From a virus (lineage: Duplodnaviria; Caudoviricetes), in IMG/VR virus record IMGVR_UViG_3300033066_000276, positions 1 through 64,000 of that record: DNA of 64,000 nucleotides. The stretch is one strand, 5' to 3'. Position numbers and translations under genes: made by a program. Every line of letters begins with the position of its first letter. Position 1 is the stretch's first letter. The notes beneath the pieces are model-generated. The model had not been told where the DNA came from. It did not search any database and worked only from the letters and a program-made list of their open reading frames with translations. Positions 28,501 to 44,415 of the stretch are shown in pieces.

Positions 28501-28755
28501 GTCGCCAATAATTGACATTGATGCGACCTCAGCCCCATCCAAGTCAACTTGACCATTATCGTCTGCAGCCATCACTTCCCCGTTAATCGGTGAGTACGGC
28601 TGAAGACTGTCATTCGTGATGACCCGGATGCCCGAGGTGCATGTGTGTGCCCTCGCGCAGACCGGCGTAACCACGTTGATAGGGTGAGACACAATGACAG
28701 GGAGCTTAACCCCTTTCATCGCCTTCTCAACCTTCGCGGTTTCGGAAATCTTCAT
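25594..28755 (-). CDS. Large acidic prohead scaffold/core-like protein with N-terminal Cys motifs
   Basis: Start moved to 28755 (GGAGA RBS); CARAHTC, CETC and CNVC motifs; ~250 aa D/E/S low-complexity tract; helical C-terminus; lies upstream of decoration and capsid genes. Confidence 0.65.
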   Translation of the reverse strand: MKISETAKVEKAMKGVKLPVIVSHPINVVTPVCARAHTCTSGIRVITNDSLQPYSPINGEVMAADDNGQVDLDGAEVASMSIIGDCETCGVTLRATPEVATALDGRKIHCNVCNTLVAVAAQDDEETEEAEEDSDDVEEVEAASDDDEEESEEASDEEESEEASDEEDDDAEEASEDDDDEEVEASEESDDDDDSEESSDDEDDDDETTASDDDDEDESEEASEESDDDDDAEEASDDDDLIEEDTELSADDSEDDDSEEASDDEDDDSEEASDDEDDDAELSGDDDDDGGDDESEDDEDTEDDGDDESDEDDESDEGEGDDESDENDSEDDDSGDDESDEDDDAGDDEEEETEASSDDDDEAEESVVINGRDTKNLGDRLKEGLGLSKNSRREALLKIKKEKNKGIKNGTLTLEKYQQLRDQFGKIKKTRGDFAALAEFKALGKSIDAVDVDSLPTEDDLDIAATRKLFGVEEAGDKWEELSTLLPTFDVEFAEIADGTDEEVDVDIEEVNADADDDEIEEEVEASEDDDEIEESSTDDEEVASLNHIVGSAYIAARVEFHDKFNRYPDLSSENENLYVALSMATILGDKKSPLYSEEVSSMIEEEQDALDVMVLAHTYVGRVNDILEQAFQGDPKKFSTSPVHRWARKAGKKFENFVGEQFGLGPVGRKRKIARDDNKIKALKSKNFQRKRIDEEKQRIKDTKGAIKGIKARHPESFDEDEMQKHEEEKQKPAKTAQELEELRHLKSQKEQEDADREAEDRKGYEAYKKHRANPLSFSYAGADTVLARNLLKEVASTFFEKDVELAHGGKDMKKVYVMVDGQPVAVLNYDKAKPETAKVWTKISTLETAFLAAAKEHGAESDELALTFGLEPIELAFDIDQEAANFIEEQMSKRLAELKGKQKEFRSALRHGLQIALAAMNKQCLKDLQDHPVKAKLYELLEQNGVKHPAKLIDTAFAEAGEDFVQVAFAKADELAKESTDARNVVARTVENASYNFQRDDDGGGDFRDRLATAGKIVTDDEDDDTKQETATQKPINLALVRKSIQSRSKR
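27920..27997. repeat. 33-nt tandem repeat (about 2.4 copies) within the acidic tract
   Basis: tcatcgtcttcgtcgtcagatgcctcttctgag twice plus a partial copy; encodes DDSEEASDDED. Confidence 0.9.
28253..28318. repeat. 27-nt tandem repeat (about 2.4 copies) within the acidic tract
   Basis: tcttcttcgtcggaggcttcttcagat twice plus a partial copy; encodes EESEEASDE. Confidence 0.9.
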
Positions 28756-29057: not shown

Positions 29058-29423
29058 CTATCTCTCAATGTTTTCCCAGAAGCGTTTCTCATCAGGATTC
29101 AACTCTTCCAGAGGGAGCCTTTCGCCCGCCGCTAGATGGGTACTGTCGCCATGGAAGTATATCTCGCCATGCTCTATGTTGTAATGGCAGATCTGTTCAC
29201 GATCCTTACCGTTACGGCGACCCTTAGAGTGTCTTAGGCTTGGAGTAAAGTGCGGTTTGTGCTGGTCGAAGTTAAACTCCCAGGTCGGCCCTCCCTCTGG
29301 CCGATCGAATGGAATGACATGGGCTTCATTGCAGCCTTGGCAATGATGGACGAAGCCACACCCCGGCAGGAAGTAGAGCTTACCGAAATAACCTCGAACG
29401 ATAGTCATCTTACCCTTCTGCAT
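29058..29423 (-). CDS. DUF6527-like small Cys/His protein
   Basis: CQGCNEAHVIP...WEFN...PHFTPSL...CHYNIEHGEIYFHGDSTH matches my recollection of this family's pattern. Confidence 0.65.
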   Translation of the reverse strand: MQKGKMTIVRGYFGKLYFLPGCGFVHHCQGCNEAHVIPFDRPEGGPTWEFNFDQHKPHFTPSLRHSKGRRNGKDREQICHYNIEHGEIYFHGDSTHLAAGERLPLEELNPDEKRFWENIER

Positions 29424-31416
29424 TCTTACCCATCAGCCACTTTGGAATCTTCAAACCTTGGTTGGTGAACCACTCTCTCATCCAACCTTTGTCAATGTAA
29501 GACTTGACGCTGGTAGACCAAATTGGTTCACCTGTTGCTTTCTTGTGACCCAACGTGACCGCTACCGGCTCAGCCACTTCCTTCTTAAACCACGCCTCTA
29601 CCGCTCGTTGTTTGTCAGCAAGCGACATACCTTTGGCTAGACGAGGTTTCTTTCCTTGCCCGTCGAGGATTTCCTGAGCCGTCATTGTGCCGCGAACGTG
29701 ACGAATCTTGTGAGCAGTTGACGGAAAGCCAATGTGCTTGAGATACTCGTTAGCAGCTTTCTCAGTAACCCTCTTCTGACCGATGCCGTAGGTCCACAGA
29801 AAGTCGGCTTTGCTCTTGCCAGTAATCAGTTTCTGTAACAGCTTGCCAGCCTTCTTTTGCACCGGAGTCTTGAACTTGGTAATGTGGTTTTGACCAATGT
29901 CCGACTTGCCACTGTACTTTAGAGCAATGCTGCTAACACCAGCATCAGTGCTATTGAGACGTACGTTATTGATGACCAGTGAGGACATACCGTCGTTCTT
30001 GTTCTTCAGTGAGCCAATACGTGCGGCGGTGTCCCATGTCATCCATACCAACAAGACAGTAACATCGTTCTTGTCAAGAACCTTCTTGTTGTCATCGATC
30101 TTACGAATATCGGCTTGCAGTCGTGCCACGATCTTTGGTGCAGCGGCAATACATTCACGGATTGTTTCATCCTTACCACTTTCACGGCGTTGGGTGTGTC
30201 CCTGCGTGTAGTAAGAATTGACCCCACCTGACTTGAGAGGTTTCAGATCAGTGATTGGAATGTCGTCATAGTCACCATCGTTGTCAAACACGACACGGAC
30301 ATTCTTGCCGTCAATCTTCTCAACGGTGACCTTATTCAAGCGGCCATCCCATTTGATGACTGCTCTATCACCAACTTTCCAAGCGGTTTTCGTTTCGTTA
30401 GACTTGTCATCTACCGCTTTGATGTAATAGGTGCTGCTGCCTTGTGTGTATTCCGGGTTCATAGTAACCGGACGTCCAGGCAACGGCCAGCCTTCCACTG
30501 CTTCACCGTAAGGTGTGAACAGAGACAAAGCGCCTTCCTTGGTCAGACCAATATTGCCAGTGTAGCCGGTCGGTACTCGGCTCCAAGGAATACCAGCCTT
30601 CTTCATCTGGGCTTCAAATTCGACCGCAGGGACATGCTGTTTGCCGCTTGAACGCAACATGCTCTTGGCTTGCGTATTCCATAGCTTAACAGCTTCACTA
30701 GCCGAACGCTTGTAGATAGCGAGCGCACCCGCCTTCTTTGGGTCTGCTGCCAGCCTTACTTCTTCCGAGTAAGTCAGCAGATAGCCCTTACGATTGACCA
30801 GCTTGAGCACACCTGCTTGGAGTTCTTCTCCCAGCTTCGTGGTCTGTGACCGATCGTGTTGCTTGACGAACTTCTTCTTGACGTTGATGTCCTTGACCAC
30901 GTTGCTGAAATTGACAACGTTGTTCCAAGCCGAAGCACTATCGTGGTTACGAAGATAAGAGCCAACGTGTTTGAAGCTGACAATCAGAGAGTAATCGTTA
31001 GCTTGAGCCGCATTGTCCAACTGCTTGGTGAACGTCAACAGTTCGTTACCAACCTGTACCGCCTTCTCCTTTACCTCTGGAACATAACCGCCACTTTTGA
31101 CCAGGGTGTCAGCAATCTCAGTCAGCTCTCGATAGCCCAAGCACATACCGGTTGTGATTTGCAGAGAACGAATGGTGCTTGACCACTTCTTCAATGCCTC
31201 AGCGTCTTGTGGCGTGCATGTACGGCTGTGAACGATATGTGCCAGCAGATAATAGGCATCTACCACCAAGGCAACTCGATCACCTTGGTATTCCATGTCC
31301 GGAACGTTTGAGGCTTTCTTCTTGCGTCGGGCTGCCACTTCGGTTACTAGACCGGAAGCGACGAACGCCAGCACTTCTGCGTTGTTTAGGTGTTCTGGGT
31401 TCACGTAGAGTCGCAT
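29410..31416 (-). CDS. DNA topoisomerase IB-like protein with an inserted Tudor/SH3-like domain
   Basis: AARIGS (Arg), YSGKS (Lys), AHKIRH (Arg), TLGH (His), KSYID (catalytic Tyr) in TopIB/tyrosine-recombinase order; WKVGDRAVIKWDG...VRVVFD insert. Confidence 0.78.
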   Translation of the reverse strand: MRLYVNPEHLNNAEVLAFVASGLVTEVAARRKKKASNVPDMEYQGDRVALVVDAYYLLAHIVHSRTCTPQDAEALKKWSSTIRSLQITTGMCLGYRELTEIADTLVKSGGYVPEVKEKAVQVGNELLTFTKQLDNAAQANDYSLIVSFKHVGSYLRNHDSASAWNNVVNFSNVVKDINVKKKFVKQHDRSQTTKLGEELQAGVLKLVNRKGYLLTYSEEVRLAADPKKAGALAIYKRSASEAVKLWNTQAKSMLRSSGKQHVPAVEFEAQMKKAGIPWSRVPTGYTGNIGLTKEGALSLFTPYGEAVEGWPLPGRPVTMNPEYTQGSSTYYIKAVDDKSNETKTAWKVGDRAVIKWDGRLNKVTVEKIDGKNVRVVFDNDGDYDDIPITDLKPLKSGGVNSYYTQGHTQRRESGKDETIRECIAAAPKIVARLQADIRKIDDNKKVLDKNDVTVLLVWMTWDTAARIGSLKNKNDGMSSLVINNVRLNSTDAGVSSIALKYSGKSDIGQNHITKFKTPVQKKAGKLLQKLITGKSKADFLWTYGIGQKRVTEKAANEYLKHIGFPSTAHKIRHVRGTMTAQEILDGQGKKPRLAKGMSLADKQRAVEAWFKKEVAEPVAVTLGHKKATGEPIWSTSVKSYIDKGWMREWFTNQGLKIPKWLMGKNAEG

Positions 31417-31479
31417 TTGGCCTTACCGTGGCTAAGCTAGGGGTGTCGAAATAGGATGTGTTTTGAGGGCTCAATCAGG

Positions 31480-31605
31480 CTATTTGGAGCCTGTATCGTC
31501 CTTATTAGAGTCATTTCTACGGCTGTAGTTGAAGTAGATGCTGTAGGCTGCCAGAACTAGAAACAGCACGATAACGACGATTCCGCCAACATTCTCAATA
31601 GGCAT
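31480..31605 (-). CDS. Small membrane protein (41 aa), not in the ORF track
   Basis: GGAG RBS then MPIENVGGIVVIVLFLVLAAYSIYFNYSRRNDSNKDDTGSK*; one hydrophobic helix. Confidence 0.65.
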   Translation of the reverse strand: MPIENVGGIVVIVLFLVLAAYSIYFNYSRRNDSNKDDTGSK

Positions 31606-31609
31606 GTCC

Positions 31610-31963
31610 CTACTCCAGTCTTATGCCGTGGTCTGATTGACCACATTGCGAACACTTACCCTTCCGGCCCACTGAGTCGCAAGTATGTACCTTGACAAAC
31701 TTCTTCTTGGCCGTACAGTTGGGGCAAGGAACATAGTTTAGGCCACCTCTATTATTCAACGGGTGGCCTTTGGCTTTTGCCTCTGCAACGGTATGGCTTA
31801 TCCATTCCTGTTGCGAGCGAGCCGACTTCTTCTGGAACGTCTGAATCCACCAGTTCGTGCAACAGGTTGGAATACCATTGACCCGACCTAGCTTCCGATG
31901 ATGGTCTTCAGGCTTACCACCAAAAATAGCTACTTCGTTGGACCGAGTGAACTTGATCTGCAT
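31610..31963 (-). CDS. Hypothetical Zn-finger protein
   Basis: GGAGG RBS, start MQIKFTRSNEVA; CPNC and CSQC motifs. Confidence 0.7.
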   Translation of the reverse strand: MQIKFTRSNEVAIFGGKPEDHHRKLGRVNGIPTCCTNWWIQTFQKKSARSQQEWISHTVAEAKAKGHPLNNRGGLNYVPCPNCTAKKKFVKVHTCDSVGRKGKCSQCGQSDHGIRLE

Positions 31964-31964
31964 G

Positions 31965-33809
31965 TCACTTGGCCTCCATCCTTTCAAAGCCTAGTTTCTG
32001 CATGTGATCGTGCAGTTCCTGTGGGCCGTGTACTACTCTGGTGTAGTGGGTCTTTGTTTCACCGGCTACGGATTTTTTTCCGCCCTTCGTTATGAACGCC
32101 ACACCTTCTGGTCCACTTACTTTATTTCTCATATACTTCTTCTTAGGCATCCCCCACTTGACAGTTACATCAGGAGCAGCAGTTTCTTTTGATAGAGCCT
32201 CACCGACCGGCTCATCCTTAGGCATAATGACTTTGAGTTTCTTGTCCCATACCTCTTTGCACTTGTTCAAGAACTTGCGCCACGGCTTCGTCTCTACCAG
32301 TGACAGGTTCTTGATCTTGCGCTGGTGAGCGCGGTCGAGAATGTCTTGCAGAATACCAGTGTCCCGCACCGCCTTGTAGGCTACGTTCTGCACTTTCCAT
32401 TCAGCTCCAGGGCTGCCATCGAGTGAAGAATTACGCAGGCCAACAATTTGACCACGGACCTTCATCATCTTGTCAATGTCACCAGACTTGATGGCATCAT
32501 TGAGTTGCTTCATCCAAGCGTTCTTGAGTGCCGTGGCAGCCTTTTTGTTGACCGTCGGTTTGACCCACTTGGGCTTCTTGATCCATTCGTTCTTGGTCAA
32601 CGAGTATTGACCATCAGACGTATGCACCTGATCGAGTGGATCGATCGACAATTCAACCGGCAAGCCCATCACCCGCACGTCTTTGTAGCGTTGTTTCCAG
32701 GCAATCTGTTTAGCCTGAATAATCATACGGTCGGCTGGATTCTTTAACGTGCTGATGATATGCACGTCGATGTCTGAGCCCTTGTGATAGTTGAAGTTGG
32801 CGTTGGAGCCCTTGAACAGAACCTCGTGCTCTTCCATCTTGATGTTCATGAACTGCTTGTAGGTGTTCACGATCTGAGACAGCTTGGCACGCACTTCCGG
32901 TTTCAGATAGGCATCCTTGCCGAACAGCTTAGGGTTCAGCTTATCGTGGTAGACGTAAGCCGTTTCAACTGACGCCGTGACTACAGCCTGCTTCGGCTTA
33001 ATCAGCATCTGCGGGTCAACTAGCTCTTCCGGCTTGATGTAACGCTTAGCACCCTTTTTGCTCAGGGTCAGCTCTTGGTTACGCAGGCTATTCATCTTCT
33101 CGTTCATCTTGTCTAGGTAACCCATCGACCGCACCAGACGATAGGCGAGGTTGTAGGGATTAGTCTCACCCTCAACCGAACCAGGGTTAGCGTTGAGGAT
33201 GGTGCGACGAGCTTTGAGAATGTCCTGGTTGCAAGCTAGGATAGTTTGGAAATCGTTGGTCTTCAACGCCGCATTGATACGCTGACACATTGATAGAGCC
33301 AGCTTGCGAATACGCATGTCCTTCTTGTTGAAAGTAAACTTGATCGGCGGTGCGACCCACGTGTTCTTGATGAGTGAATACACACCGCCAGCGGGCTTCG
33401 GTTGTTCTTCATGCTCAACGAAGACTTCAATCGGCAAGCCAACAGCTTTAATCTTACGCAGCTTCTTCCACAGCACCGTCTTGGTGTAGATCATATCACG
33501 AATGAACATCTCACCGTGCGTGTTCAACTGAATGTGAACGTCGAGATCTGACTTGCCAGAGTAATTGTAGTTGGCGTTGCTACCCGAGATGTTAATGTCA
33601 CTGATCGGATAGGTCTGAATATCGATCTTGGCAAATGCCAAAAACCCCCTGACGACTTTCAGGAGGTGCTGACGAATGTGCGGCCGCATCTTGCGGTTCT
33701 CATCCCAAATCTGTGGGTTCAAATCCTTGTGTTGCTTGAGGCCGTGCGTGGTAGGTGGCAGGCCGACCTTTTCCAACAGGGCTTGATCGCGGTAGAAGTT
33801 GTAACGCAT
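31965..33809 (-). CDS. Tandem two-domain Pol-beta-superfamily nucleotidyltransferase
   Basis: Two copies of GSNAN(Y/F)NY...SD(L/I)DVH with downstream (V/L)E(V/L) and helical lobes; 614 aa. Confidence 0.85.
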   Translation of the reverse strand: MRYNFYRDQALLEKVGLPPTTHGLKQHKDLNPQIWDENRKMRPHIRQHLLKVVRGFLAFAKIDIQTYPISDINISGSNANYNYSGKSDLDVHIQLNTHGEMFIRDMIYTKTVLWKKLRKIKAVGLPIEVFVEHEEQPKPAGGVYSLIKNTWVAPPIKFTFNKKDMRIRKLALSMCQRINAALKTNDFQTILACNQDILKARRTILNANPGSVEGETNPYNLAYRLVRSMGYLDKMNEKMNSLRNQELTLSKKGAKRYIKPEELVDPQMLIKPKQAVVTASVETAYVYHDKLNPKLFGKDAYLKPEVRAKLSQIVNTYKQFMNIKMEEHEVLFKGSNANFNYHKGSDIDVHIISTLKNPADRMIIQAKQIAWKQRYKDVRVMGLPVELSIDPLDQVHTSDGQYSLTKNEWIKKPKWVKPTVNKKAATALKNAWMKQLNDAIKSGDIDKMMKVRGQIVGLRNSSLDGSPGAEWKVQNVAYKAVRDTGILQDILDRAHQRKIKNLSLVETKPWRKFLNKCKEVWDKKLKVIMPKDEPVGEALSKETAAPDVTVKWGMPKKKYMRNKVSGPEGVAFITKGGKKSVAGETKTHYTRVVHGPQELHDHMQKLGFERMEAK

Positions 33810-33811
33810 GA

Positions 33812-34450
33812 TTATTTCTCAACCCCAATTTGGAATACTTGTTTAGCGAATGGGTCAACGATGACTAGCTTATCCTGTGTGTTCATCATCAGGTTGCCTG
33901 GGTTCAGATCGAAACGAAACAGCGGTGTCGCTAGCTTCTGTAGGCCCAAGACGGTTCTAGTGAGTGATTCTAGTTGTTTGGTCTTGCGCAAGTAAGCGCG
34001 AAATTCTCTGGCTCGACCGAGGATATCTGGGTTGTAGTTGTCTGGCATCGTCTTTGACAAAGCCAACCCAATGATCGCGTTACCCCAACCAAGATTACCC
34101 GCAGCCAATAGCTTTCTAAGGTTTGGTGGCAGAGGCTTAAGCCGTTGTAGTCTAACTGCGTACATGCGCTTGCCGACACGCACCGTCTTACCAATGATGT
34201 TTGGTAGGTGCTTATTTGTCTTAGCCTTGCGGCAATGAGCTAGGAAGACACTGTAACCGTGATCGAACTTGTAGCACTTGAGAACTTGCGATGTATCACC
34301 CGGCTTAATGAAGACACGAGCCATCGCACCCGCACCAATCTTCTTGGTGAAGCCTACCTTTTTGGCGTAGTTTGCGGCCTTTATTTCAAAGGCAGGATCA
34401 ATGGTTAGTACACCGCCATAGATGTACGAGCGCTCGAAGTAGTAGCGCAT
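33812..34450 (-). CDS. Protein-kinase-like (ePK/APH fold) protein
   Basis: KIGAGAMARVF Gly-loop, VLK, DLNPGNLM catalytic loop, IVDP metal-binding motif. Confidence 0.8.
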   Translation of the reverse strand: MRYYFERSYIYGGVLTIDPAFEIKAANYAKKVGFTKKIGAGAMARVFIKPGDTSQVLKCYKFDHGYSVFLAHCRKAKTNKHLPNIIGKTVRVGKRMYAVRLQRLKPLPPNLRKLLAAGNLGWGNAIIGLALSKTMPDNYNPDILGRAREFRAYLRKTKQLESLTRTVLGLQKLATPLFRFDLNPGNLMMNTQDKLVIVDPFAKQVFQIGVEK

Positions 34451-34451
34451 C

Positions 34452-34838
34452 TTATTTCACAACGATGATCTTATATCGAACAACCGGGTTGGTTACCACG
34501 AACGGATTATTGATTGAGAAATCACCTATTGCTCCAGCATACAAGAACATGCGTTCAAGCGGAACATGGTAGAAGTCCTCCCAAGCGTTACCGTTTTTGA
34601 TCTTGACACTAAAGTCAACTGGATGATCTACAACGATGTATAGACCCATTGGAGGAGTGCTGAGGTTAAACTCCATACCAAAGTTGGGTGGATCACCATC
34701 GTCAGTTGTTAGTTCGCCTTCGATAACCTGGACACCGTCACCTTGCATGGTGATCTTGTTACGAGCGATGTCTTCTTTTTGGTCACCATCGTAGCGACGA
34801 ATTGAGATGTCGAACGACACAGAAGTCTCAGCGGTCAT
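34452..34838 (-). CDS. Hypothetical beta-rich protein (paralog of 22127..22477)
   Basis: LYIVVDHP...MFLYAGAIG...NPV. Confidence 0.65.
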   Translation of the reverse strand: MTAETSVSFDISIRRYDGDQKEDIARNKITMQGDGVQVIEGELTTDDGDPPNFGMEFNLSTPPMGLYIVVDHPVDFSVKIKNGNAWEDFYHVPLERMFLYAGAIGDFSINNPFVVTNPVVRYKIIVVK

Positions 34839-34933
34839 TTCTTCCTCGCTAGCGCCTTGCGCTTACGTCGCCAGTAGCGGTTATCTACGTAGTCTTCCCA
34901 CTTGGCAATTTTCCACCACTCAAGTACAGCCAT
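34835..34933 (-). CDS. Small Trp/Arg/Lys-rich peptide (32 aa), not in the ORF track
   Basis: MAVLEWWKIAKWEDYVDNRYWRRKRKALARKK*; TAATG overlap upstream and ATGA overlap downstream exactly fill the gap. Confidence 0.7.
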   Translation of the reverse strand: MAVLEWWKIAKWEDYVDNRYWRRKRKALARKK

Positions 34934-35172
34934 TACGCATCCTTTTTATCGACGTGAATACCTAGACCTTCAAGTTGCTTATGAGCATCTGGGTGTCCAG
35001 TTACAACCACGTTGTAATGCTTGCCGCTACGATCTCCACGCACACCAACAAAATCTGTGACGTGACCTTTGTGTTGCAAGTCAACAAGATTCTCACGGAA
35101 TTTGCTGACGCCGCCTTTGGGGATTCGATATGCCGTAGTCTTGGCAACCTCCCGACGCATTTGATAACGCAC
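34933..35172 (-). CDS. Small basic protein with MRY tag (putative internal head protein)
   Basis: MRYQMRREVAK start; coupled overlaps. Confidence 0.7.
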   Translation of the reverse strand: MRYQMRREVAKTTAYRIPKGGVSKFRENLVDLQHKGHVTDFVGVRGDRSGKHYNVVVTGHPDAHKQLEGLGIHVDKKDA

Positions 35173-35417
35173 TAAACCAATCCTTCTGAGATTAAGTCAA
35201 CGGTGAATCCTGAGCGATAGAAACCAGCTTCGCGTAAGGACTTACTCGGTTCCAGTTCTTTCTTACCATGATATAAGACGAGACGATCCCGGTCAGAGAT
35301 CAATCGCCTTTGGGCAGCTTCTTTTATCACGTCTGCTACCTTGGCCGAAGCCAAGGCGCTCATTGGTACTACACCCATTTGGGTCCGAACTTGGAACCGA
35401 TACTCATCCATTGCCAA
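35172..35417 (-). CDS. Putative ubiquitin-like (beta-grasp) protein
   Basis: FQVRTQMG...AKVADV...LVLYHGKKELEPSKSLREAGF...TVDLI aligns by eye with the ubiquitin/YukD hydrophobic pattern. Confidence 0.6.
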   Translation of the reverse strand: MAMDEYRFQVRTQMGVVPMSALASAKVADVIKEAAQRRLISDRDRLVLYHGKKELEPSKSLREAGFYRSGFTVDLISEGLV

Positions 35418-35432
35418 TCCCCTTGGCTAGAT

Positions 35433-36029
35433 TTACCGTTGTAGCATTGAGAAGTAGTCTGGGTTGCGATGACTTGGATTGCCCCTTGGCCTGGGTACTT
35501 TTGAAAAATCCAAACCAAGCTCTTTTACGATAGAGATATTTGACCTACCTAGAGCTACGTCATTCACCGCCGCCGCGCTACACCCTAATTTTTCCGCTAT
35601 CACACGGCAAGGTGTTTCCGCTTTCAAGGCTTTGTAGATGAATTTGATTGCCTTCTTGTTAGCGATCTTACTCATCGACCTGTTTTGCACTTGTTTTACG
35701 GCATCTACCATTCTGATGTTGGAAGGATTGTTGTTCGTGACAACCCTATCCCTGTGGTCAAGTTCCATCTTGTTAGCTTTGAGATACTCCCTAAACTCCC
35801 AAGATTTTGTGGCTAGGGCGTAAGCAACGTAATGCTCACGAACGTCTAACCTCTGTCCGCTTCCATACAATGAGTAGCGTGGATAACCACACTCGTCAAA
35901 GTTATCAGCGAGTACCCTTCGCGGACCGGTTACCCTTAACCTACCATTGGATAGCAACTTCGCTGTGTATCCGTCAAATGGTTCAGGAAGGCGATAAGTC
36001 TTTCCTACCTTGAGCTTTCGCTTCTTCAT
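35433..36029 (-). CDS. HNH homing endonuclease
   Basis: ELDHRDRVVTNNNPSNIRMV HNH motif and C-terminal HTH. Confidence 0.88.
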   Translation of the reverse strand: MKKRKLKVGKTYRLPEPFDGYTAKLLSNGRLRVTGPRRVLADNFDECGYPRYSLYGSGQRLDVREHYVAYALATKSWEFREYLKANKMELDHRDRVVTNNNPSNIRMVDAVKQVQNRSMSKIANKKAIKFIYKALKAETPCRVIAEKLGCSAAAVNDVALGRSNISIVKELGLDFSKVPRPRGNPSHRNPDYFSMLQR

Positions 36030-36811
36030 TTGTTCAACATGCTGAAATAAGAGGGGTTGTCAGCCGTCACGTAAGCCGGGGTGGCGACGCTAGATGTTTC
36101 AAAGCCGATTGGATCGATGGCTCTGTAATAGGCCAGATCGGAGCCGTTGTAGAGGCGATACTGCGGACGTTGCTTATCAACGTGATCGCAACCACCAGAC
36201 TTCAATGACTTGGCGCAGATCGAGCACTCGTAATCCTTCACATACGCGCCCATCGAATAGGCGGTACGCTTGCGGGTTAGAATGTCATTGACCAGCATTG
36301 CGTCCTTGCTGCGATCAAACGCCAGCAACGAAACAACCTTCCACACTGAGCCTTCGTAACCAGTCATTGGACGAATAGCGGTATCGAGGATAACGCCTTT
36401 TGCTTCAACCGGGTTTTGGTTCTGGTGCTCAACGTGCGTGGGTTTGCCGACCCAGGACTTATACATCAAGCAGCCGGTGTCTGGGCTAAATCGCGTCAGT
36501 TCTCTGAACGGGAAGCCAACGCCGTTACGATTTGGCAGTTCCGACGGCATAATCATCACCGGGATGACAACATAGTCAGCTAACGATTTCGAGATGCGGT
36601 ACGGCTCAGACGCAAACGGTAACCAGCCACGAACCTTCTTGGTCAGGTCCATGAAGCCTTCGGTGTCCGTCAGCGCATCAACGCCAGCGATAGACGTGAT
36701 AGAACGCTTTGCATCTTCCTCGTCACCCTTCATAACCTTGTGAAGCTCAAAGGGGGTAGATGTAACGCTCAAGTCGTGGAACGACATCTCAAGAAATTCA
36801 CGATCTTCCAT
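36026..36811 (-). CDS. Putative prohead (capsid maturation) protease
   Basis: NRNGVGF...KPTHVEH...GVILD...YSMGAYVKDYECSIC...CDH: His/Ser arrangement of HK97/herpes-type phage maturation proteases. Confidence 0.72.
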   Translation of the reverse strand: MEDREFLEMSFHDLSVTSTPFELHKVMKGDEEDAKRSITSIAGVDALTDTEGFMDLTKKVRGWLPFASEPYRISKSLADYVVIPVMIMPSELPNRNGVGFPFRELTRFSPDTGCLMYKSWVGKPTHVEHQNQNPVEAKGVILDTAIRPMTGYEGSVWKVVSLLAFDRSKDAMLVNDILTRKRTAYSMGAYVKDYECSICAKSLKSGGCDHVDKQRPQYRLYNGSDLAYYRAIDPIGFETSSVATPAYVTADNPSYFSMLNK

Positions 36812-37485
36812 TACTTCTTTCCCTTCCGTGCCTTACGAGCACGCGCCAACTTGTTGTAACCATTGCGCTGGATTGAACGTTCAATGCGTTTGTTCTCGGG
36901 CGTCATCAGCGCCCAACCTTTATTGAAGCCGATCTGTTCGAGCACTGCCTTCTTGGTGCGAAGCTCTGGAGGTATAGTGTTGGCTATAGAGCTCAACTTG
37001 TTACGGCTGGCTTGCTTTAGCATGTCATCGATATGGTGAAACTTCGGCCTAATTAATTTTGAGCCTCTGTTCTTATCAACGTACTCTTTATGAGCCCGCT
37101 TTAGGTCGGTGTCCTCAAACCTAAATTTCTTTTCAACCCCGCCTGGACCGATTGACACAATCCCATCTGCGTTCACGCCTTCACCGTTCAAGTGACGACG
37201 AGCTACGTTCCTAACGTCGCCGAACGAAGGCTTGTTGCGAAAGCCATCCTCTTCATCCTCATTTGGAACCTTTTTGCCAGCTAGATCACGCATCGCTCGC
37301 TTGGCTTCTGTGGCTTCTTTGACTGCCTTGCGAGCCGATCGGATCTTCGCTCGGCTCATACGCAATACCGCTTTTGACGCGCCGGAGTCTTTCAGTTGGG
37401 TGTGCAGGCGTTCGGCATCATGGATAGGGCCAACACTGTCCTCTTCGTCCTCACATTTGCTCGACCGATTGAAGTAGATTCTCAC
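36811..37485 (-). CDS. Basic hypothetical protein with MRIYFNR tag
   Basis: GGAGG RBS then GTG at 37485 (GTGA overlap); Lys/Arg-rich. Confidence 0.7.
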   Translation of the reverse strand: MRIYFNRSSKCEDEEDSVGPIHDAERLHTQLKDSGASKAVLRMSRAKIRSARKAVKEATEAKRAMRDLAGKKVPNEDEEDGFRNKPSFGDVRNVARRHLNGEGVNADGIVSIGPGGVEKKFRFEDTDLKRAHKEYVDKNRGSKLIRPKFHHIDDMLKQASRNKLSSIANTIPPELRTKKAVLEQIGFNKGWALMTPENKRIERSIQRNGYNKLARARKARKGKK

Positions 37486-38360
37486 GCTTTCCTCCATTCG
37501 ATCTCGGCACCACCGGTATCTTTAGCCCAAGTGTTGAGAAACTCACTTGAGATGCCGCCATAGCACTTTTTGAGCCGCCAAATATGCTTGTAAATAGGGA
37601 CACCTTCGGCCCTGTCTACTTGCTTACTGACACTGATAACTTGGAAGATGAACGGGACAATGTGACCCAATTCCAAGTTGCTGCTGATGATAGACACCTT
37701 CTTGATCTGCAATTGCGAGATAAGTTCAGACCAGTTATACAGCACCACGTCTAGGGCTTTGCTACGCGGCAGCAACGAATACAAGACCGGCAACGAGCGC
37801 ACGTATTGCTTTTTCTCTTCGTCCATGTCAAGATAGTTGACCATAGTCTTCTCAGTCAACGCTTGCCGCAGCTTCCACTCATCGATCTTCATCATCAAGT
37901 GGGCTTCGTAGATACCGCGCATCAAGTTGGTGACAACGCTATCACATTCATCTTCACCGATGCCCAACTCAGATCTAACGTTACCAGCGAAGATCTCAGC
38001 CGACGGGACCATCTTCTTGTCACGCATCAATAGGAACTCGGCCTCGAAATTTCTATCGGGGTCGATGTTGCGCATCAACAGATTAAGTTGCGGCTGGTAC
38101 GGCACGAACTTATCTGGCAACGTGATCTGTGTCACTAGCGGATAGTAGCTACCTTCGTGATTGAGGCGTTGCACGTCTCTTTGAGCCTCAGTAATGGCGA
38201 CACTGATGGAATTGTGCGCCACGAAACCATTGTCGAGAACCAGCTTAGCTGGACTCCTCATGGTCATGCGTGACGCAGGGATGCCATACAGCAACCACGT
38301 ATCGAGGTAGACTGACGAGCAGCCTAGCCAGAAGGTAATGGGTTCACTCTTATCAGGCAC
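37482..38360 (-). CDS. Hypothetical protein (possibly degenerate ADP-ribosyltransferase-like N-terminal fold)
   Basis: 292 aa ORF; weak FWLGCS...GI...GF..HNS..VA...PLVTQI pattern. Confidence 0.5.
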   Translation of the reverse strand: MPDKSEPITFWLGCSSVYLDTWLLYGIPASRMTMRSPAKLVLDNGFVAHNSISVAITEAQRDVQRLNHEGSYYPLVTQITLPDKFVPYQPQLNLLMRNIDPDRNFEAEFLLMRDKKMVPSAEIFAGNVRSELGIGEDECDSVVTNLMRGIYEAHLMMKIDEWKLRQALTEKTMVNYLDMDEEKKQYVRSLPVLYSLLPRSKALDVVLYNWSELISQLQIKKVSIISSNLELGHIVPFIFQVISVSKQVDRAEGVPIYKHIWRLKKCYGGISSEFLNTWAKDTGGAEIEWRKA

Positions 38361-38365
38361 TACGC

Positions 38366-38653
38366 TCAGTCCTTGTGTATAGGTGTGTCAACGTCATCAA
38401 AGGTCTTACCATACCAGTTGCGGGTGTAACCTTTGTACGAATGGCCTTTTTTCTTTATGTCAGCTTCGGTATTAGTCCACACTTGTTGGGCTTCACGTCT
38501 GGTTGTCCCCTCATGGATCTTCTTGCCGTTAAGCTCAACACCATGCAAGACCTTCTTGCCGTCTTTGCGCCGGTACGCCACCAGCTTATGCATTTTACCT
38601 GCACTAGACACAAGTTTTGGTGCGGCTGTCTCACGCACGAATTGGTAACGCAT
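38366..38653 (-). CDS. Small basic protein with MRY tag
   Basis: MRYQFVRETAAPK start. Confidence 0.72.
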   Translation of the reverse strand: MRYQFVRETAAPKLVSSAGKMHKLVAYRRKDGKKVLHGVELNGKKIHEGTTRREAQQVWTNTEADIKKKGHSYKGYTRNWYGKTFDDVDTPIHKD

Positions 38654-38744
38654 TACTTGCCTTTGCCTCCGAGGTACTTTGCCATCTTCCTAAGGTAGCC
38701 ACGTCTGATTTTGGATGTCAAGTCTTTCAGACGTTGCTCGAACA

Positions 38745-39026
38745 TCACTTCTTTTTCTTTGGATAGAGTGAGTTTTCAATTGCACTTTTACGAACTGACC
38801 ACGGCTTGCCATGCTTCTTTGAAAGAGCTTTGGCTACCTTTTCGGCTTCGGCTTTGGTATCTAGTAAGCCACTCCACAGATAATTGGTACTATCTCCTTT
38901 GACACCCCCCCAACCCCCATGACCATCGAACTCATAGACAACACTGGCTAATGGCTTAGCCAGATACTTTGTGTAACGTTCAACTAGAGAATCAATCTCG
39001 TTGGCAAGGGCAAAGAAGTAGCGCAT
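38745..39026 (-). CDS. Small protein with MRY tag
   Basis: MRYFFALANE start; its frame may read on toward 38653. Confidence 0.65.
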   Translation of the reverse strand: MRYFFALANEIDSLVERYTKYLAKPLASVVYEFDGHGGWGGVKGDSTNYLWSGLLDTKAEAEKVAKALSKKHGKPWSVRKSAIENSLYPKKKK

Positions 39027-39986
39027 TTAATTATCCATAAGCTTCAAGACTTTCGGGGCTATCTTCTTAGCCCAATCCTTAGCTACCTTTTTGAACGAGG
39101 CTTTCCACTTGCTTGGACAGTTGTTGTTGATCGCAAATTCACACTTGCTGTATGCTTCGTCCTCTATCTCTTTAACTGTTACCTTCTTGCTCCACTTATG
39201 ATAGTAGGCAAGGGTATCCACACTACAATCCTCTAAGTACGCTGAGTCGAACATATCCTCAAGCTCGTCGAGATCGTAAATACCCTCTTTTCCGAGTTGC
39301 GTCTTTAGCGACTTGTAGAGGTATAAAAGAAAAAGCTCGTCATCACTGGATGATGCCGTCTCCGCAGCCTTCTCTTCCATCAACCTACGATGCCACACTC
39401 CTTGATGGTGTACGGCTTCGCGCTTGGTTAGCCCGTTGATCTTCAATTTGCCATCGACACGCACCGCATACTGAGCGCCGTCGTTACCTCCCTCTTGCCG
39501 AAAGGTGACGCGCTTTTTGATATGCGAAGGTATCTCAACCGATGATGCCTCAATCGCTTTCACTTTGTCGTCGCAGCGCTTGCAGATCGGAACATCACCG
39601 AGGATCGGGTGTGAGCGCGTCGTGGTAGATTGGTTCTTACACAAGGCAAACCAACCACAACCCGGTTTTGCTGCCGCCTTCTTCTCTTGTGCAGCCAAGC
39701 GCTTCTTCATCGCAGGCTTAATACTCTTGCCAAGCGGGGTACGCTTTTTCGCCGCTTGTTCAGCTCGTCTAGCGCCACCGCCTAACATCTCAGCTACCCG
39801 ACGAATAGCCTTTGGGCTTTTTGAGTAGATGCCAATGTGATCGTCGTGCTCGACGTACTGAGAGTGGCCTATGTCACCGAGCTTCTTGCGCGTGTCATCT
39901 GTCTTGGGAAGGCGCAGCTTATGAATCTTGCCTTCCTCAATGACGACGGCTAAGCTCTCTTTGGTTTTGTCGAACTTACGCATCAC
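39027..39986 (-). CDS. Modular hypothetical protein with Zn-finger
   Basis: CGWFALC...CKRC; modules separated by IEASS and ETASS. Confidence 0.7.
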   Translation of the reverse strand: MMRKFDKTKESLAVVIEEGKIHKLRLPKTDDTRKKLGDIGHSQYVEHDDHIGIYSKSPKAIRRVAEMLGGGARRAEQAAKKRTPLGKSIKPAMKKRLAAQEKKAAAKPGCGWFALCKNQSTTTRSHPILGDVPICKRCDDKVKAIEASSVEIPSHIKKRVTFRQEGGNDGAQYAVRVDGKLKINGLTKREAVHHQGVWHRRLMEEKAAETASSSDDELFLLYLYKSLKTQLGKEGIYDLDELEDMFDSAYLEDCSVDTLAYYHKWSKKVTVKEIEDEAYSKCEFAINNNCPSKWKASFKKVAKDWAKKIAPKVLKLMDN

Positions 39987-40966
39987 TCTTTATCCTTAAC
40001 AGCTAACTTCTTGTAGTCTGGTGTTGGGCACTTACCGCGCCGGAATGGATGCATTGCAGTCCATGCTGATTGTTCGCAATTGTGATAAGCGGTAGCACAG
40101 ATCTTCTTGATGTTGTCAGCAGTGAGCGGCTTTGAGAAGTCATTGCCTAGCACAGTAACAATTGCGTTTTTGATCTCATACATAGTGAGAACGCTTACTT
40201 TGTAGTGCTCACCGTTTGTCTTGCGAGGATGAAAATCTTGCTTCCAAACTTCGATTACCTTATCAAGGATGTCAGCCGGAACGTTCTGAACCGCTTTGGA
40301 CTTAGCCTCATCCTCAGGTGAAGGTGGCTTGGCGATATAGCCAACAGGCTTTTCAAACGCATTCTGATCGTAATACTCAGGGTGATAGGACCAATCGCCT
40401 GCGGGAAGCGACTTGAGCACAGGAATTCCAACGTAGCGTTGGTGCGCTTGGATCAACGCCAGTTTGCGTTTTCCATATTCCTCATCCCCGATTTTTCCAC
40501 GATTGCGGGAGAGCCAACTCAAACGCCACTCCGTCCGTTTAGTCACATCGTCCCTAAACCCGCCGAAGGATAACGGACGAACCGGCCACATTCCTGGCTC
40601 TGTCCTTTTATTTTCCTTCTTGTTCCACGCTCGAATAGCTTTAACAATCAGGCCAAGCTTGGCATGAGGGATGTCAAAGGTGAGACGATGATTGCGAGGA
40701 TCAGAGTAACGCTCGTTTATCTGAACCACCTTTGGTTTGACACCATGCTTTTTAAGTATGGCACTCACTTGGGTAGCTGCTTTTTTATCTGCGGCAATGA
40801 GGCTGTAGCTGCCTTGGATGGTCTTTGGAAACTTGATCCCTTCAACCGTCTCCAATACCGTGCCTGCTACTTTGGGTTTTGCCTTGGCCTTCTTTTTGGT
40901 TGGATCTCGACGCAAACGTTTAGTGGCTACGTCTTCGTGATCCCGGTTGAAGCTGAAACGCATCAC
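39983..40966 (-). CDS. Basic hypothetical protein with MRFSFNR tag
   Basis: 327 aa ORF coupled to the portal stop. Confidence 0.7.
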   Translation of the reverse strand: MMRFSFNRDHEDVATKRLRRDPTKKKAKAKPKVAGTVLETVEGIKFPKTIQGSYSLIAADKKAATQVSAILKKHGVKPKVVQINERYSDPRNHRLTFDIPHAKLGLIVKAIRAWNKKENKRTEPGMWPVRPLSFGGFRDDVTKRTEWRLSWLSRNRGKIGDEEYGKRKLALIQAHQRYVGIPVLKSLPAGDWSYHPEYYDQNAFEKPVGYIAKPPSPEDEAKSKAVQNVPADILDKVIEVWKQDFHPRKTNGEHYKVSVLTMYEIKNAIVTVLGNDFSKPLTADNIKKICATAYHNCEQSAWTAMHPFRRGKCPTPDYKKLAVKDKE

Positions 40967-43900
40967 TCTGTCACTCCAAATGCGCTCGGCGTTCTCATCG
41001 CCAGCCTTTTGATTTCACGCTTGTTGAGTTTGCCGCCGCCAGAAGCAAGTTCAAGTAAGGCCGCAGCGATCTTCTTGTTCTGCTTCTCTTCAAGCCGCTT
41101 TTGGTAAGACGAGGTAGCGATACGACGCTGGCCTCGGCTGTCGCGTTCGTAGACACGATAGCGGTCAGTATCAAACTCACCGCGCGGCTTCTTCATCTTG
41201 GCATAGGTACGGCCAAACGATTGCAACGCCGCATTCATCTCACGACGATCGGCTTCACTCAGATTGGCCTGCTCCATACCCGGTTGCTGTGGCATAAACT
41301 TTTCAAGCCGGGCCAGTTGCTTCGACACGTCTTTGCGAGTTTGCAAGTCATCGTCGAACTGATCCATAACCTGATCGAGATTCATACCACCGGCGGCAGC
41401 AATCATCCGCAATGGCACTGGCACCCCGTTCTGCGTCATGATCTGCAGGATGTTGAGGTAGGCTTCGTCCGCTTGCGGTTGCAGTTGCTTGTGCCAGTTG
41501 ACCGTTGGGATCTGATACTCAGTGATATCCTCGATCTCATTCAGGTCGTGGCCCAAAGAACCATCGCACAACGCCATGTAGTCGCCGTTGCGATTCTTCA
41601 TGATATAGGTGCCGCGCGAGCCCCAGATAGGCCGACGATACGGTGAGATGTATTCACCGCGACGACGCAGGCGAGCCCGCTCACTCTTACTCAGTGAACC
41701 ATGCGCCTTGAAGCTACGGCCACCATCTTCGTTCTTGAAGTTGTTGGCAACCGCAATCGACGGGAACAGCTTATCGTAGAACAACTCCCGCGTCACCATC
41801 TGACGATAGCTACGCAGTTGTTCCATGAACACCGACAGGGCGGTTTCTAGTGTATTGTAGCTGGCCTCACCTGAGAGGAAGGTTTCGTTGATGCCCAGAC
41901 CCTTGAGCTTTGCCGCTGCAAGGTAATCGTAGACATCCGAATTATGAACGACAATACCATTGGCAACGAAGGAATTTTCTTCTCCCTTAGCCATTGTCAA
42001 ATCGTAAGTACTTACGATCTTGCCCTTGGTTATTTCCTTTAACTCAGTGAAGAAGAATTTTCTCTCAAACAAGGCAATTACTTTAGCGTGTTCCGTGGGA
42101 GAAACCTGCTTTAGGATTGAAAGTTGCTGGTCGTATTCTCCATCGACATAATTGTCGTAGCTCCAAAAAGCTCGAAGTTCGCGATTGAAAATGTTGTAAC
42201 CTTCAACCTCAATATCCTTTCCATCATCAGTTCTAAGGATTACTCCTACACGACGACCTACTTTCCGTCCGTTTAAGAACGCCCTAATACCGGCAGTAGG
42301 AATACCAGCCGTGTGTTGTGGCCATTGTGGTGTCGCTACTTCTTTGATCTTGTGGGTCAAAAATGGTTGGAGCTTGGAATTTAAGCTATGAGTGGCACCA
42401 CGATTGAACGTAAGAACGTTATTGTGGATATGACTCAAACATCCATGAGACGCCATCATTGTCTGCATCTGACGAAGGTTCTTCTTCGAGGATGAAGCAA
42501 TACTAATGTTAGTCTCAGAGATAGTACCATCACCCTCGATGTAACCAGCCAAATAAGCCAACTGACATTCTTCGTTGGCTTGCAAAACTGTGTAAGGTAC
42601 TTCTTTGTAGTACGAAGGAGATTTTTTCTTTCGATGGTTCTTCAGGCCAATATGAGTCCAAAACTTGGATAGTAAAGTGCTGCAATATCCAACATCATAA
42701 AACTCCTTAGTAGAAGTCATACCGGCAGATTCAATACCTGGCGGTCGTGTTCCTCTTCGAGCTTCAATACCAAATTGTTCCAGCATGATAGTGGCAAAAC
42801 GATCGGCAAGCTTCTTGTTCGAGTTGCCAAAATGGCTCTGCGTTTTGTCAAAGCTTCCTTCGGACACCATCAAGCCTAAGATGAAAGCCAAGTCCGTATT
42901 CATGTACTTTGGAAAGCGGAGTTCTTTTTCGTTACCATATTCGTTGGCTTCAAACGGAGGCAATTTATATTCAGATTGACGAGTCAACGAATCTGTAGTG
43001 GCACAAAGCAAGTCACCTAATTGGAGGTCCTTACCTTTCTTCCAGACTACTTCGTTATTTTCAAGCACCATAAAGCGGTGTTCTTTGGTAGCAGTTATCG
43101 TCTGACCATTGGCTGTACGATATTTGAATACAGGTTTTTTGCCTGCATTGGTCCATTCCGCCACTTTGGCTGGACCTTTGCCACCTAGAATACGAAGAGG
43201 TTTGCTGGAATTGTTGATACGATCCTCTAACTCGTCAATGCGAAAGATACCTTCTTCTGTTGGAATAAGGGTATCACCAGCAAGACAGTGTTTCCACAGA
43301 TCATCCCCACGCCGGACTTCGTTAGTCAACACCCCTTGGCGTGTGACGACGACGGCTCCAGTCGGGTCGAGGTTAGCAGTAGCGAAGAGGTTAGCCCCCG
43401 CTTGCATTTCCTGATCGGTAGGTTCCCAGACTTCATCGCCCATCGTGATATGCAAAATCGCCCGTTGGCGGGCGTAGGCTTGCTCCATGGTGCCGCGCAT
43501 CAGCGCTTTTTCCATGATCCACAACGGTATCAAACGACGAAACGCCGATGTTCCAATTGACGAGTACGAGAAGGTCTTGCGACCGATGTAAACTGTGCTG
43601 GCTGGATCAAGGGCGATACGATTGCCACCACCACGTCCACCACCGCCGCGATTTGAACCGCCAGTGGACGCACCTTGCACGGCTTGCTTGTAGAACTCAG
43701 GTAGATTCTTCAACGCCTTCTTGGCGCGATCATCCTTTGAGTTGAATAGCTCGACCAGATTCTTCGGCACCTTCATATCGATGATAGGGTCCATCCCGTA
43801 GATGGGCGTATCAAGGAACTCAAGGTTATCTTGGTTGTGGGTGACGACGTTCGAGAAGATGCCGCGGCTCTTGTTGAACGAGAACGTGCCGACGAAAGCT

Positions 43901-44415
43901 CCATCGACAATGTAGTCAATCGACAATTGCGGGAACAGTGTCTTGAGTTTGAGGTTCTCAATCGACTTGACGAAAACCTTGAGCACCTCTTCATCGTTGA
44001 CACCACTCAACGAGAAATCTGAGAACGGCAAGTTAGACATCAGGTCGGCAGCGGAGCCGGCAATGGTGTCGTGGTAGTACATATCTCGAGCCAGCTTACG
44101 GATAACCTGTGGCTTCGAGGTGACGATACCTTCAATGACGTCCGCTTCGTACTGGCCGACGATGGCAGAACCACCGAGTCCAGTCTTGCTCGAATTAACG
44201 TCAACCCCACCCGCCGCCGCAACTTCGGCCATGTACGGATCGGTGTATGCTTCCTCACGAGAGTTGGCAAGCACCTTCTGATCTGGCTTGCCGGTAACAG
44301 CTACAGATGAACGTTCGCCCCCGCCGCCGTAGCCAAGCTGGGAGTTAAAAGTAACCAAGCGTTGTTTGCCTTGACGGTCTTTGTAAAGGCCGACTTCTGA
44401 TGTACGTTTGAGCAT
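40963..44415 (-). CDS. Portal protein, intein-containing
   Basis: Follows terminase; RDMYYHDTIAGSAAD...LPFSDF, RRLIPL, LGINETFLSGEASY portal-like motifs; about 700 aa after intein removal. Confidence 0.75.
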   Translation of the reverse strand: MLKRTSEVGLYKDRQGKQRLVTFNSQLGYGGGGERSSVAVTGKPDQKVLANSREEAYTDPYMAEVAAAGGVDVNSSKTGLGGSAIVGQYEADVIEGIVTSKPQVIRKLARDMYYHDTIAGSAADLMSNLPFSDFSLSGVNDEEVLKVFVKSIENLKLKTLFPQLSIDYIVDGAFVGTFSFNKSRGIFSNVVTHNQDNLEFLDTPIYGMDPIIDMKVPKNLVELFNSKDDRAKKALKNLPEFYKQAVQGASTGGSNRGGGGRGGGNRIALDPASTVYIGRKTFSYSSIGTSAFRRLIPLWIMEKALMRGTMEQAYARQRAILHITMGDEVWEPTDQEMQAGANLFATANLDPTGAVVVTRQGVLTNEVRRGDDLWKHCLAGDTLIPTEEGIFRIDELEDRINNSSKPLRILGGKGPAKVAEWTNAGKKPVFKYRTANGQTITATKEHRFMVLENNEVVWKKGKDLQLGDLLCATTDSLTRQSEYKLPPFEANEYGNEKELRFPKYMNTDLAFILGLMVSEGSFDKTQSHFGNSNKKLADRFATIMLEQFGIEARRGTRPPGIESAGMTSTKEFYDVGYCSTLLSKFWTHIGLKNHRKKKSPSYYKEVPYTVLQANEECQLAYLAGYIEGDGTISETNISIASSSKKNLRQMQTMMASHGCLSHIHNNVLTFNRGATHSLNSKLQPFLTHKIKEVATPQWPQHTAGIPTAGIRAFLNGRKVGRRVGVILRTDDGKDIEVEGYNIFNRELRAFWSYDNYVDGEYDQQLSILKQVSPTEHAKVIALFERKFFFTELKEITKGKIVSTYDLTMAKGEENSFVANGIVVHNSDVYDYLAAAKLKGLGINETFLSGEASYNTLETALSVFMEQLRSYRQMVTRELFYDKLFPSIAVANNFKNEDGGRSFKAHGSLSKSERARLRRRGEYISPYRRPIWGSRGTYIMKNRNGDYMALCDGSLGHDLNEIEDITEYQIPTVNWHKQLQPQADEAYLNILQIMTQNGVPVPLRMIAAAGGMNLDQVMDQFDDDLQTRKDVSKQLARLEKFMPQQPGMEQANLSEADRREMNAALQSFGRTYAKMKKPRGEFDTDRYRVYERDSRGQRRIATSSYQKRLEEKQNKKIAAALLELASGGGKLNKREIKRLAMRTPSAFGVTE
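41941..43287 (-). mobile_element. Intein with LAGLIDADG endonuclease in the portal (449 aa)
   Basis: Starts CLAGDT, block B TATKEHRF, LGLMVSEG and LAGYIEGDG, ends FVANGIVVHN followed by Ser. Confidence 0.95.

Follow-up and report, generated by a model that had tools for sequence, protein, structure and literature searches.

An N-Terminal Peptide Shared by Unrelated Head-Module Proteins of a PaBG/RSL1-Related Jumbo Phage: A Candidate Capsid-Targeting Propeptide

Introduction

This study concerns a short peptide found at the extreme N terminus of nine otherwise unrelated proteins in a virus of the class Caudoviricetes, IMG/VR record IMGVR_UViG_3300033066_000276. Positions 1 to 64,000 of that record were analyzed and are referred to as the window. 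The peptide, hereafter the tag, has the general form M-R-[Y/F/I]-x-[F/M]-x-R and is often followed by E-[T/V]-A. The closest described system is the capsid targeting sequence (CTS) of phage T4, on which Mullaney and Black reportedly worked in 1996. The CTS is a ~10-residue peptide, MKTYQEFIAE, found on highly basic internal proteins, which it brings into the scaffolding core (PMC8442874). It is carried by IPI, IPII, IPIII, Alt and others, and is removed once by the gp21 prohead protease (PMC8442874, PMC5694885).

The tag resembles the T4 CTS in several respects. Both are short (~8-10 residues), lie at the very N terminus, and are common to basic proteins with no other likeness. A gp21-fold protease is encoded alongside, a Glu comes after the tag, and the set of candidate cargo proteins turns over between relatives. 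The make-up of the two peptides is also alike, though loosely (Met, a basic residue, Tyr/Gln/Phe, an aliphatic residue, Glu). They differ in sequence, with no significant alignment of the window tag to MKTYQEFIAE, and the window tags do not consistently meet the Leu/Ile-x-Glu rule. Unlike T4, the window phage belongs to the jumbo clade related to PaBG and RSL1, its tag is known from sequence alone, and the candidate cargo includes large enzymes, namely a topoisomerase IB (TopoIB), a double nucleotidyltransferase (NTase) and a kinase-like protein.

A second described case is that of the phiKZ-like giant phages phiKZ, 201phi2-1 and SPN3US, in which long N-terminal propeptides of inner-body and ejection proteins are cut at [S/A/G]-x-E by gp175/gp245 (PMC5694885, PMC10052503). 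The protease belongs to the same superfamily as that of the window, processing at Glu occurs in several internal head proteins, and a role in targeting proteins to the prohead has been proposed for the propeptides. Unlike the tag, these propeptides mostly exceed 100 residues and include no single common short peptide; common N termini have been reported only for the paralogs gp53 and gp54.

Two other systems offer partial parallels. Encapsulin cargo-loading peptides are short and portable, send diverse enzymes inside a shell of the HK97 fold, and belong to cargo whose genes adjoin the shell gene. Unlike the tag they are usually C-terminal and uncleaved, and they serve a non-viral compartment. 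The protease Prp removes an N-terminal extension common to ribosomal protein L27 and the capsid and scaffold proteins of Staphylococcus phage 80alpha. Here too a short N-terminal motif on unrelated head-module proteins is removed by a dedicated protease, but Prp is a host cysteine protease, the proteins are structural, and the outcome is processing rather than cargo loading.

The goal of this study was to follow up a sequence-only reading of the window, which had proposed that the tag is a capsid-targeting signal for a packaged enzyme payload.

Results

The tag is confined to a block of genes near the prohead protease

The window covers the first 64 kb of one contig, and contig-wide counts take in the whole of its 80,096 bp. 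Every window gene is carried on the minus strand. The sequence-only reading had listed nine tagged starts, and all nine were found on that strand, at positions 40963, 39026, 38653, 37485, 35172, 34450, 33809, 31963 and 31416. The starts at 37485 (after GGAGGA) and 35172 are GTG codons, and both are backed by ATG at the same position in the orthologs of a close relative, L002, whose protease is 84% identical to that of the window. The other listed tags begin at Met.

All six frames of the contig were scanned with the regular expression M/V-R-[YFIL]-x-[FMV], a pattern defined after the data were seen. It occurs at 8 real gene starts, all between 31.4 and 41.0 kb. This amounts to 8/94 minus-strand open reading frames (ORFs) against 0.16 expected from composition (binomial P = 7e-12), an enrichment of the kind proposed earlier as a check. 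All of the matching starts (8/8) fall inside the 16 genes between the portal gene and the gene for a DUF6527 protein (hypergeometric P = 1e-7), in line with the earlier statement that the tag clusters near the protease and not elsewhere. Since the contig is 80 kb of a larger genome, probably one of more than 200 kb, the absence of the tag elsewhere holds for this contig alone. The ninth start, 31963, has the variant MQIKFTR, which is without Arg2; its L002 ortholog begins MRFKFSR. Two of the other starts, 31416 (MRLYVNPE) and 39026 (MRYFFAL), are loose fits without Arg at position 7.

The codons for R2, Y3, F5 and R7 vary from gene to gene (CGT/CGC/CGA/CGG/AGA, TAC/TAT and TTC/TTT), and the DNA upstream of the tagged starts is unrelated between genes. 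Because codons vary at the kept residues, it is the peptide and not the nucleic acid that is under selection. When the first 25 residues were removed, BLASTP among the nine proteins gave no pair at E<0.01, which agrees with the description of these proteins as otherwise unrelated. They had also been described as basic, and Lys plus Arg exceeds Asp plus Glu in 9/9. The tag is real, selected as a peptide, specific to one position, portable, confined to the head module and encoded beside a protease of the gp21 fold.

The tagged proteins

Six of the tagged proteins are small or unassigned basic proteins. The 326-aa protein (39983-40963; tag MRFSFNR) has no known family, and its ATG overlaps the portal stop codon. 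The others are proteins of 93 aa (38745-39026; MRYFFAL), 95 aa (38366-38653; ATG start, MRYQFVRE and then residues TAA), 224 aa (36811-37485; GTG start, (M)RIYFNR) and 79 aa (34933-35172; GTG start, (M)RYQMRRE and then VA), and a Cys-rich protein of 117 aa (31610-31963; variant MQIKFTR).

For the remaining three, the enzyme annotations of the sequence-only reading were borne out. The 614-aa double NTase (31965-33809; MRYNFYR) has two NTase domains of the Pol-beta type, at residues 36-100 (PF22600) and 329-391 (PF01909), and its phage homologs match twice. Homology to cyanophage proteins starts near residue 24-27 and matches to predicted structures start from residue 12-13. The 212-aa T7 gp0.7-type kinase-like protein (33812-34450; MRYYFER) matches phrog_15752 (E 6.5e-10) in its C-terminal part only. 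It also has a precomputed PF27024 match, and no match in the local Pfam copy. In an Atlas structure search it matched kinase clusters at template modeling (TM) scores of 0.5-0.69, the matches beginning at residue 11-21. As similarity of both the NTase and the kinase begins past the tag, the tag is not part of the folded or homologous core but an addition to it. A kinase homolog from another sample that is 78% identical has exactly MRYYFER, although its next seven residues differ.

The 668-aa TopoIB (29410-31416) has the weak tag MRLYVNPE, after which a helix-like stretch ends in TEVAA at residue 26. It scores 35.9 bits against Pfam PF01028 (cut-off 23.7) over its catalytic domain, residues 430-642, and was assigned by this domain score rather than by single catalytic residues. 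A HMMER search of cluster representatives found 222 homologs at E<=1e-10. A word-based homolog search, swamped by low-complexity words, returned only the protein itself and that of L002.

The tag persists through rearrangement in a close relative

The earlier expectation that homologs keep the N terminus also held. The tag pattern recurs in L002 and in P0263. L002 orthologs of the 224-aa, 79-aa, NTase, 117-aa and TopoIB proteins keep the tag, and L002 has a tagged protein without a counterpart in the window. Between the two phages the tag was kept through domain shuffling, gene fusion or fission, and cargo turnover. The L002 ortholog of the 224-aa protein has 237 aa and the tag MRYNFTRE. The tag occupies residues 1-8 in both proteins, while the block right behind it in the window protein sits at residue 114 in L002.

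The tagged L002 protein without a whole counterpart in the window is a 356-aa mosaic with an OmpR-type DNA-binding domain (Trans_reg_C). Residues 15-75, directly after its tag, are 95% identical to residues 147-207 of the 318-aa protein of the window, where an I-E-A-S-S junction precedes the module. Residues 267-356 are 90% identical to the stand-alone 95-aa gene of the window. At the point where the 95-aa gene begins, L002 reads in frame without a tag. The difference is a 20-nt indel (38638-38657), which in the window gives the stop codon of an upstream remnant, the ATG, and the tag residues RYQFV. The remnant is a 30-codon ORF (38655-38745) that ends like the module upstream of the 95-aa-like part in the L002 356-aa protein. 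To judge from the alignment, it is the scar of the rearrangement that split or fused these genes. Whichever state is ancestral, each separate polypeptide appears to have one tag at its very start, and the module borders, as read from the two sequences, coincide with Glu junctions. The kinase, HNH endonuclease and 93-aa genes are missing at the corresponding places in L002.

The protease and Glu junctions in head proteins

The tagged block includes the gene for a prohead maturation protease (36026-36811), identified by PHROG and by an AlphaFold (AF2) model. It matches PHROG 18299 at E 4.5e-70, and H129 and S186 are invariant in 52 homologs. The nearest named relatives (35-47% identical) are from jumbo phages, namely Vibrio phage GR7B, Pseudomonas putida phages, PaBG, NCTB, phiRSL1, and Erwinia and Dickeya phages. 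The model, built from a 52-sequence alignment (predicted local distance difference test score 86), is matched best in the PDB by T4 gp21 (5JBL; probability 1.0, TM ~0.5); herpesvirus proteases are far weaker next matches. Sequence profiles missed gp21, both in Pfam with the single protease and in PDB sequences with the 52-sequence profile, and it was found by the fold search alone. Judging by this model, the protease would be a relative of gp21 at the level of the fold only. Members of this protease family that have been studied, in T4 and phiKZ-like phages, cleave after Glu (PMC5694885), and virion proteins undergo proteolytic processing in the relative PaBG (PMC7412058).

Every tagged protein has a Glu within residues 6-13. 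In the 95-aa, 79-aa and 117-aa proteins E-[T/V]-A comes directly after the tag. The motif E-x-A-[S/A/T] occurs at 0.0041 per residue in head-module proteins and at 0.0006-0.0007 in tail genes and the rest of the contig, a ~6-fold difference. In the major capsid protein and in the 157-aa protein that follows it, the first such site is at residue 14. This enrichment would fit a cleavage code of the protease.

The same motif occurs 14 times in a very acidic 1053-aa protein (25594-28755; 31% Asp plus Glu). A Cys-rich N-terminal part, an Asp/Glu linker and a C-terminal helical domain of this protein are conserved in all relatives. It may be a scaffold or core protein and may also serve as the receptor of the tag. 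A tag receptor is likely to be a component of the core, for which the 1053-aa protein and the protease itself are the candidates. The window copy of the 1053-aa protein has an additional insert of ~440 residues. PHROGs names the family 'ATPase', for which the sequence gives no obvious support.

Other lineages have different tags, or none

In L006, whose protease is 52% identical to that of the window, six non-homologous proteins around the protease start with the helix-like A-L-x-[VT]-L-x-x-Y-[VL]-E. They include the TopoIB ortholog, and E-T-[A/S]-A comes next in 3/6. Phage NCTB has M-[KL]-I-x-[SL]-[IL]-S at the start of TopoIB and of four further proteins. Similar strand-like peptides stand at the start of L014 proteins (a NUDIX enzyme, a ligase adenylation domain, TopoIB, a SprT-like protein and two unknowns) and of many TopoIB homologs in a library of 1.8 billion proteins. 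In the other lineages too, tagged proteins near the protease or TopoIB were unrelated beyond residue 25 by BLASTP. At least four chemically different tag types were found among the phages compared.

The cultured phage phiRSL1 was searched across its whole genome. A degenerate pattern, I-x-A-A-x-x-R-L, gave 7 matches, compared with 0 in a reversed control, and 6/7 lie 4-6 residues after an ORF start. The tagged proteins are small and number at least six: those of ORF123, ORF124 and ORF127, those from re-called starts of ORF126 and ORF133, and one from an ORF near 148.67 kb. Five of these six ORFs adjoin the protease gene, ORF132. The annotated starts of ORF126 and ORF133 (AB366653.2, ~69425 and ~77367) seem to be wrong. 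The tagged N termini arise from an in-frame Met upstream of the annotated start in ORF126 and downstream of it in ORF133.

No common tag was found in Vibrio phage GR7B, Pseudomonas phages Amme-1 and PaBG, or Dickeya phage JA11, nor in contigs L003, L005, L007, L008, L013, L015, L018 and L019. As no common tag occurs in several relatives whose module has only two or three accessory genes, the device is common and not universal. A megablast search of the tagged block against 50,697 phage records gave no match at the nucleotide level, and a scan of viral_contigs with protease peptides also gave no match. The literature covered on the PaBG/RSL1 group, with the phiRSL1 virion proteome outside it, neither describes such tags nor names TopoIB in any virion proteomics.

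In several of the contigs L003, L004, L008, L013 and L014 a gene for a SprT-like metalloprotease lies directly upstream of TopoIB. SprT-family proteases clear topoisomerase-DNA adducts in cells, and the arrangement hints that the two form a functional pair. A Pfam scan of the 19 head-block proteins of the window (23.7-47.9 kb) found no SprT-like protein.

Gene order and neighboring genes

In gene order, which runs from high to low coordinates, the large terminase (47906-44712) comes first. It is followed by the portal (40963-44415), which forms the upstream border of the tagged block, and by the run of 16 genes, including the protease, between the portal and the DUF6527 protein (29058-29423). 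The 1053-aa acidic protein, a 236-aa virion structural protein and the major capsid protein (23677-24786; E-R-A-S at residue 14) come next in that order. The capsid protein forms the downstream border of the head module, and tail genes come after it. The 318-aa basic protein (39027-39983) starts MRKFDK, which is not the full tag.

Inteins with LAGLIDADG homing endonucleases split both the portal and the large terminase. Relatives L007, L008 and L013 also have inteins in the terminase, portal or DnaB helicase. Directly after the protease is an HNH endonuclease gene (35433-36029). L007 has this gene and L002 lacks it at the corresponding place, so it is probably a mobile insertion. A 79-aa protein (35172-35411) has a weak ubiquitin-like match (TUG-UBL1, E 4e-4). 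The DUF6527 protein lies in the same head module, and its L006 homolog is called BubE in precomputed Pfam names. These two proteins may form a ubiquitin-like pair.

Discussion

We favor the explanation that the tag acts as the CTS does in T4, as a capsid-targeting propeptide at the N terminus, and consider it probable, with real room for error. Each separately translated cargo protein would bear one copy of the tag at its extreme N terminus, the cargo being TopoIB, the double NTase, the T7-type kinase and the six small or unassigned basic proteins. The cargo would be expressed late, together with the portal, protease, capsid and acidic scaffold-like proteins. The tag would steer it into the core of the assembling prohead. 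At least some tags would then be cut off behind a Glu by the gp21-fold protease, and the basic cargo would stay alongside the packaged DNA, which it may accompany into the host. Core binding, cleavage, presence in the virion and injection are all predicted steps. What speaks for this explanation is a tag that stays bound to its position through shuffling, tags of their own in the relatives, a protease of the gp21 fold, and a frequent Glu junction. In our judgement the strongest support comes from the different tags of other lineages, which were an unforeseen finding.

Several results weigh against capsid targeting, and this part of the sequence-only reading was upheld only partially. Only about half of the tagged proteins have a junction of the E-x-A type right after the tag. 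At the tag junctions P3 is Val, Arg, Thr or Gln and not the Leu or Ile of T4. As 5/9 tags are not followed by E-x-A-[S/A/T], removal of every tag is unsupported. Within the tagged block, proteins of 318, 292, 79 and 128 aa do not have the tag. Relatives L003, L005, L007, L008 and L013 have a TopoIB in the head module without a common tag, and in PaBG and phiRSL1 TopoIB is untagged and located elsewhere in the genome. Finally, a generic all-against-all score of N-terminal similarity placed the contig only modestly above internal controls (16 pairs vs 3-11). This score is noisy, since acidic repeats raise the internal controls; it gave 5 pairs vs 0 for L002 and 5 vs 0-1 for L006, and so lends the tag no more than modest support.

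The tag might instead be recognized by a partner other than the capsid, as a degron for a protease of host or phage, a chaperone-targeting peptide (as is the N terminus of T4 gp23) or a propeptide that inhibits toxic enzymes until they are needed. We regard this as unlikely, though it is the alternative we take most seriously. N-motifs of the ClpXP type start with Met, a basic residue and a hydrophobic residue, and a tag selected as a peptide at the extreme N terminus is what such a signal would look like. An active or long-lived TopoIB, kinase or NTase could harm the phage factory. T4 propeptides also recruit chaperonins (PMC10052503). Such a signal leaves unexplained why the tag is confined to genes interleaved with those for the portal, protease and capsid, and why it is followed by a Glu junction like those enriched in head proteins. 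A host machine would, moreover, need a constant motif, and relatives have strand-like or helix-like tags on the same kind of genes.

The mosaic nature of the block, with fusion or fission, reordered domains, and gene gain and loss between the window and L002, suggests another origin, in which the common start is a by-product of cassette recombination at a gene-start crossover point and does nothing in the protein itself. Exchange of this type probably also takes place at the variable internal-protein loci of T4. We find this improbable for the tag, as synonymous codons differ at every conserved residue, upstream DNA is unrelated, and recombination would have no homology to use where tag DNA is not conserved between genes. 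The amino acid pattern is nevertheless kept in L002 and in the 78%-identical kinase homolog. The freedom of codon choice at kept residues, with five Arg codons at position 2, makes it very improbable that the motif acts on mRNA or translation initiation through preferred early codons or a downstream box for late genes. The tagged genes do share a single compact late-type operon in which stop and start codons overlap, yet untagged genes of that operon, including those for the protease and capsid protein, manage without it. Chance resemblance or hidden paralogy can be given almost no weight: the pattern was set after the fact and two starts fit it loosely, but the binomial and hypergeometric values, the recurrence in L002 and P0263 and the lack of similarity beyond residue 25 all speak against it. 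A DNA-level signal, paralogy and chance were rejected on the variable codons, the absence of BLASTP pairs and these counts.

Capsid targeting by the window tag may be one instance of a wider system, a proposal we put forward tentatively and hold to be somewhat less likely than not. Jumbo phages related to PaBG and RSL1 would use interchangeable, lineage-specific N-terminal address peptides that are short, each matched to its own prohead core and ending at a common Glu junction, to load variable payloads into the capsid for delivery with the DNA. In this proposal the payloads would include TopoIB, nucleotidyltransferases, the kinase, DNA ligase, NUDIX and a SprT-like protease.

If these proposals are true, the wider tag family would be a natural, re-programmable protein-delivery system beyond T4, and would offer new tags of 7-12 residues with which foreign proteins could be loaded into phage capsids. 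For uncultured phages, it would become possible to predict which proteins are injected. TopoIB, nucleotidyltransferases and the kinase could act before phage gene expression, for example against host defenses. T4 would then be no special case, and short capsid-targeting peptides would be a recurrent feature of large phages that diverges quickly and can be read from the genome.

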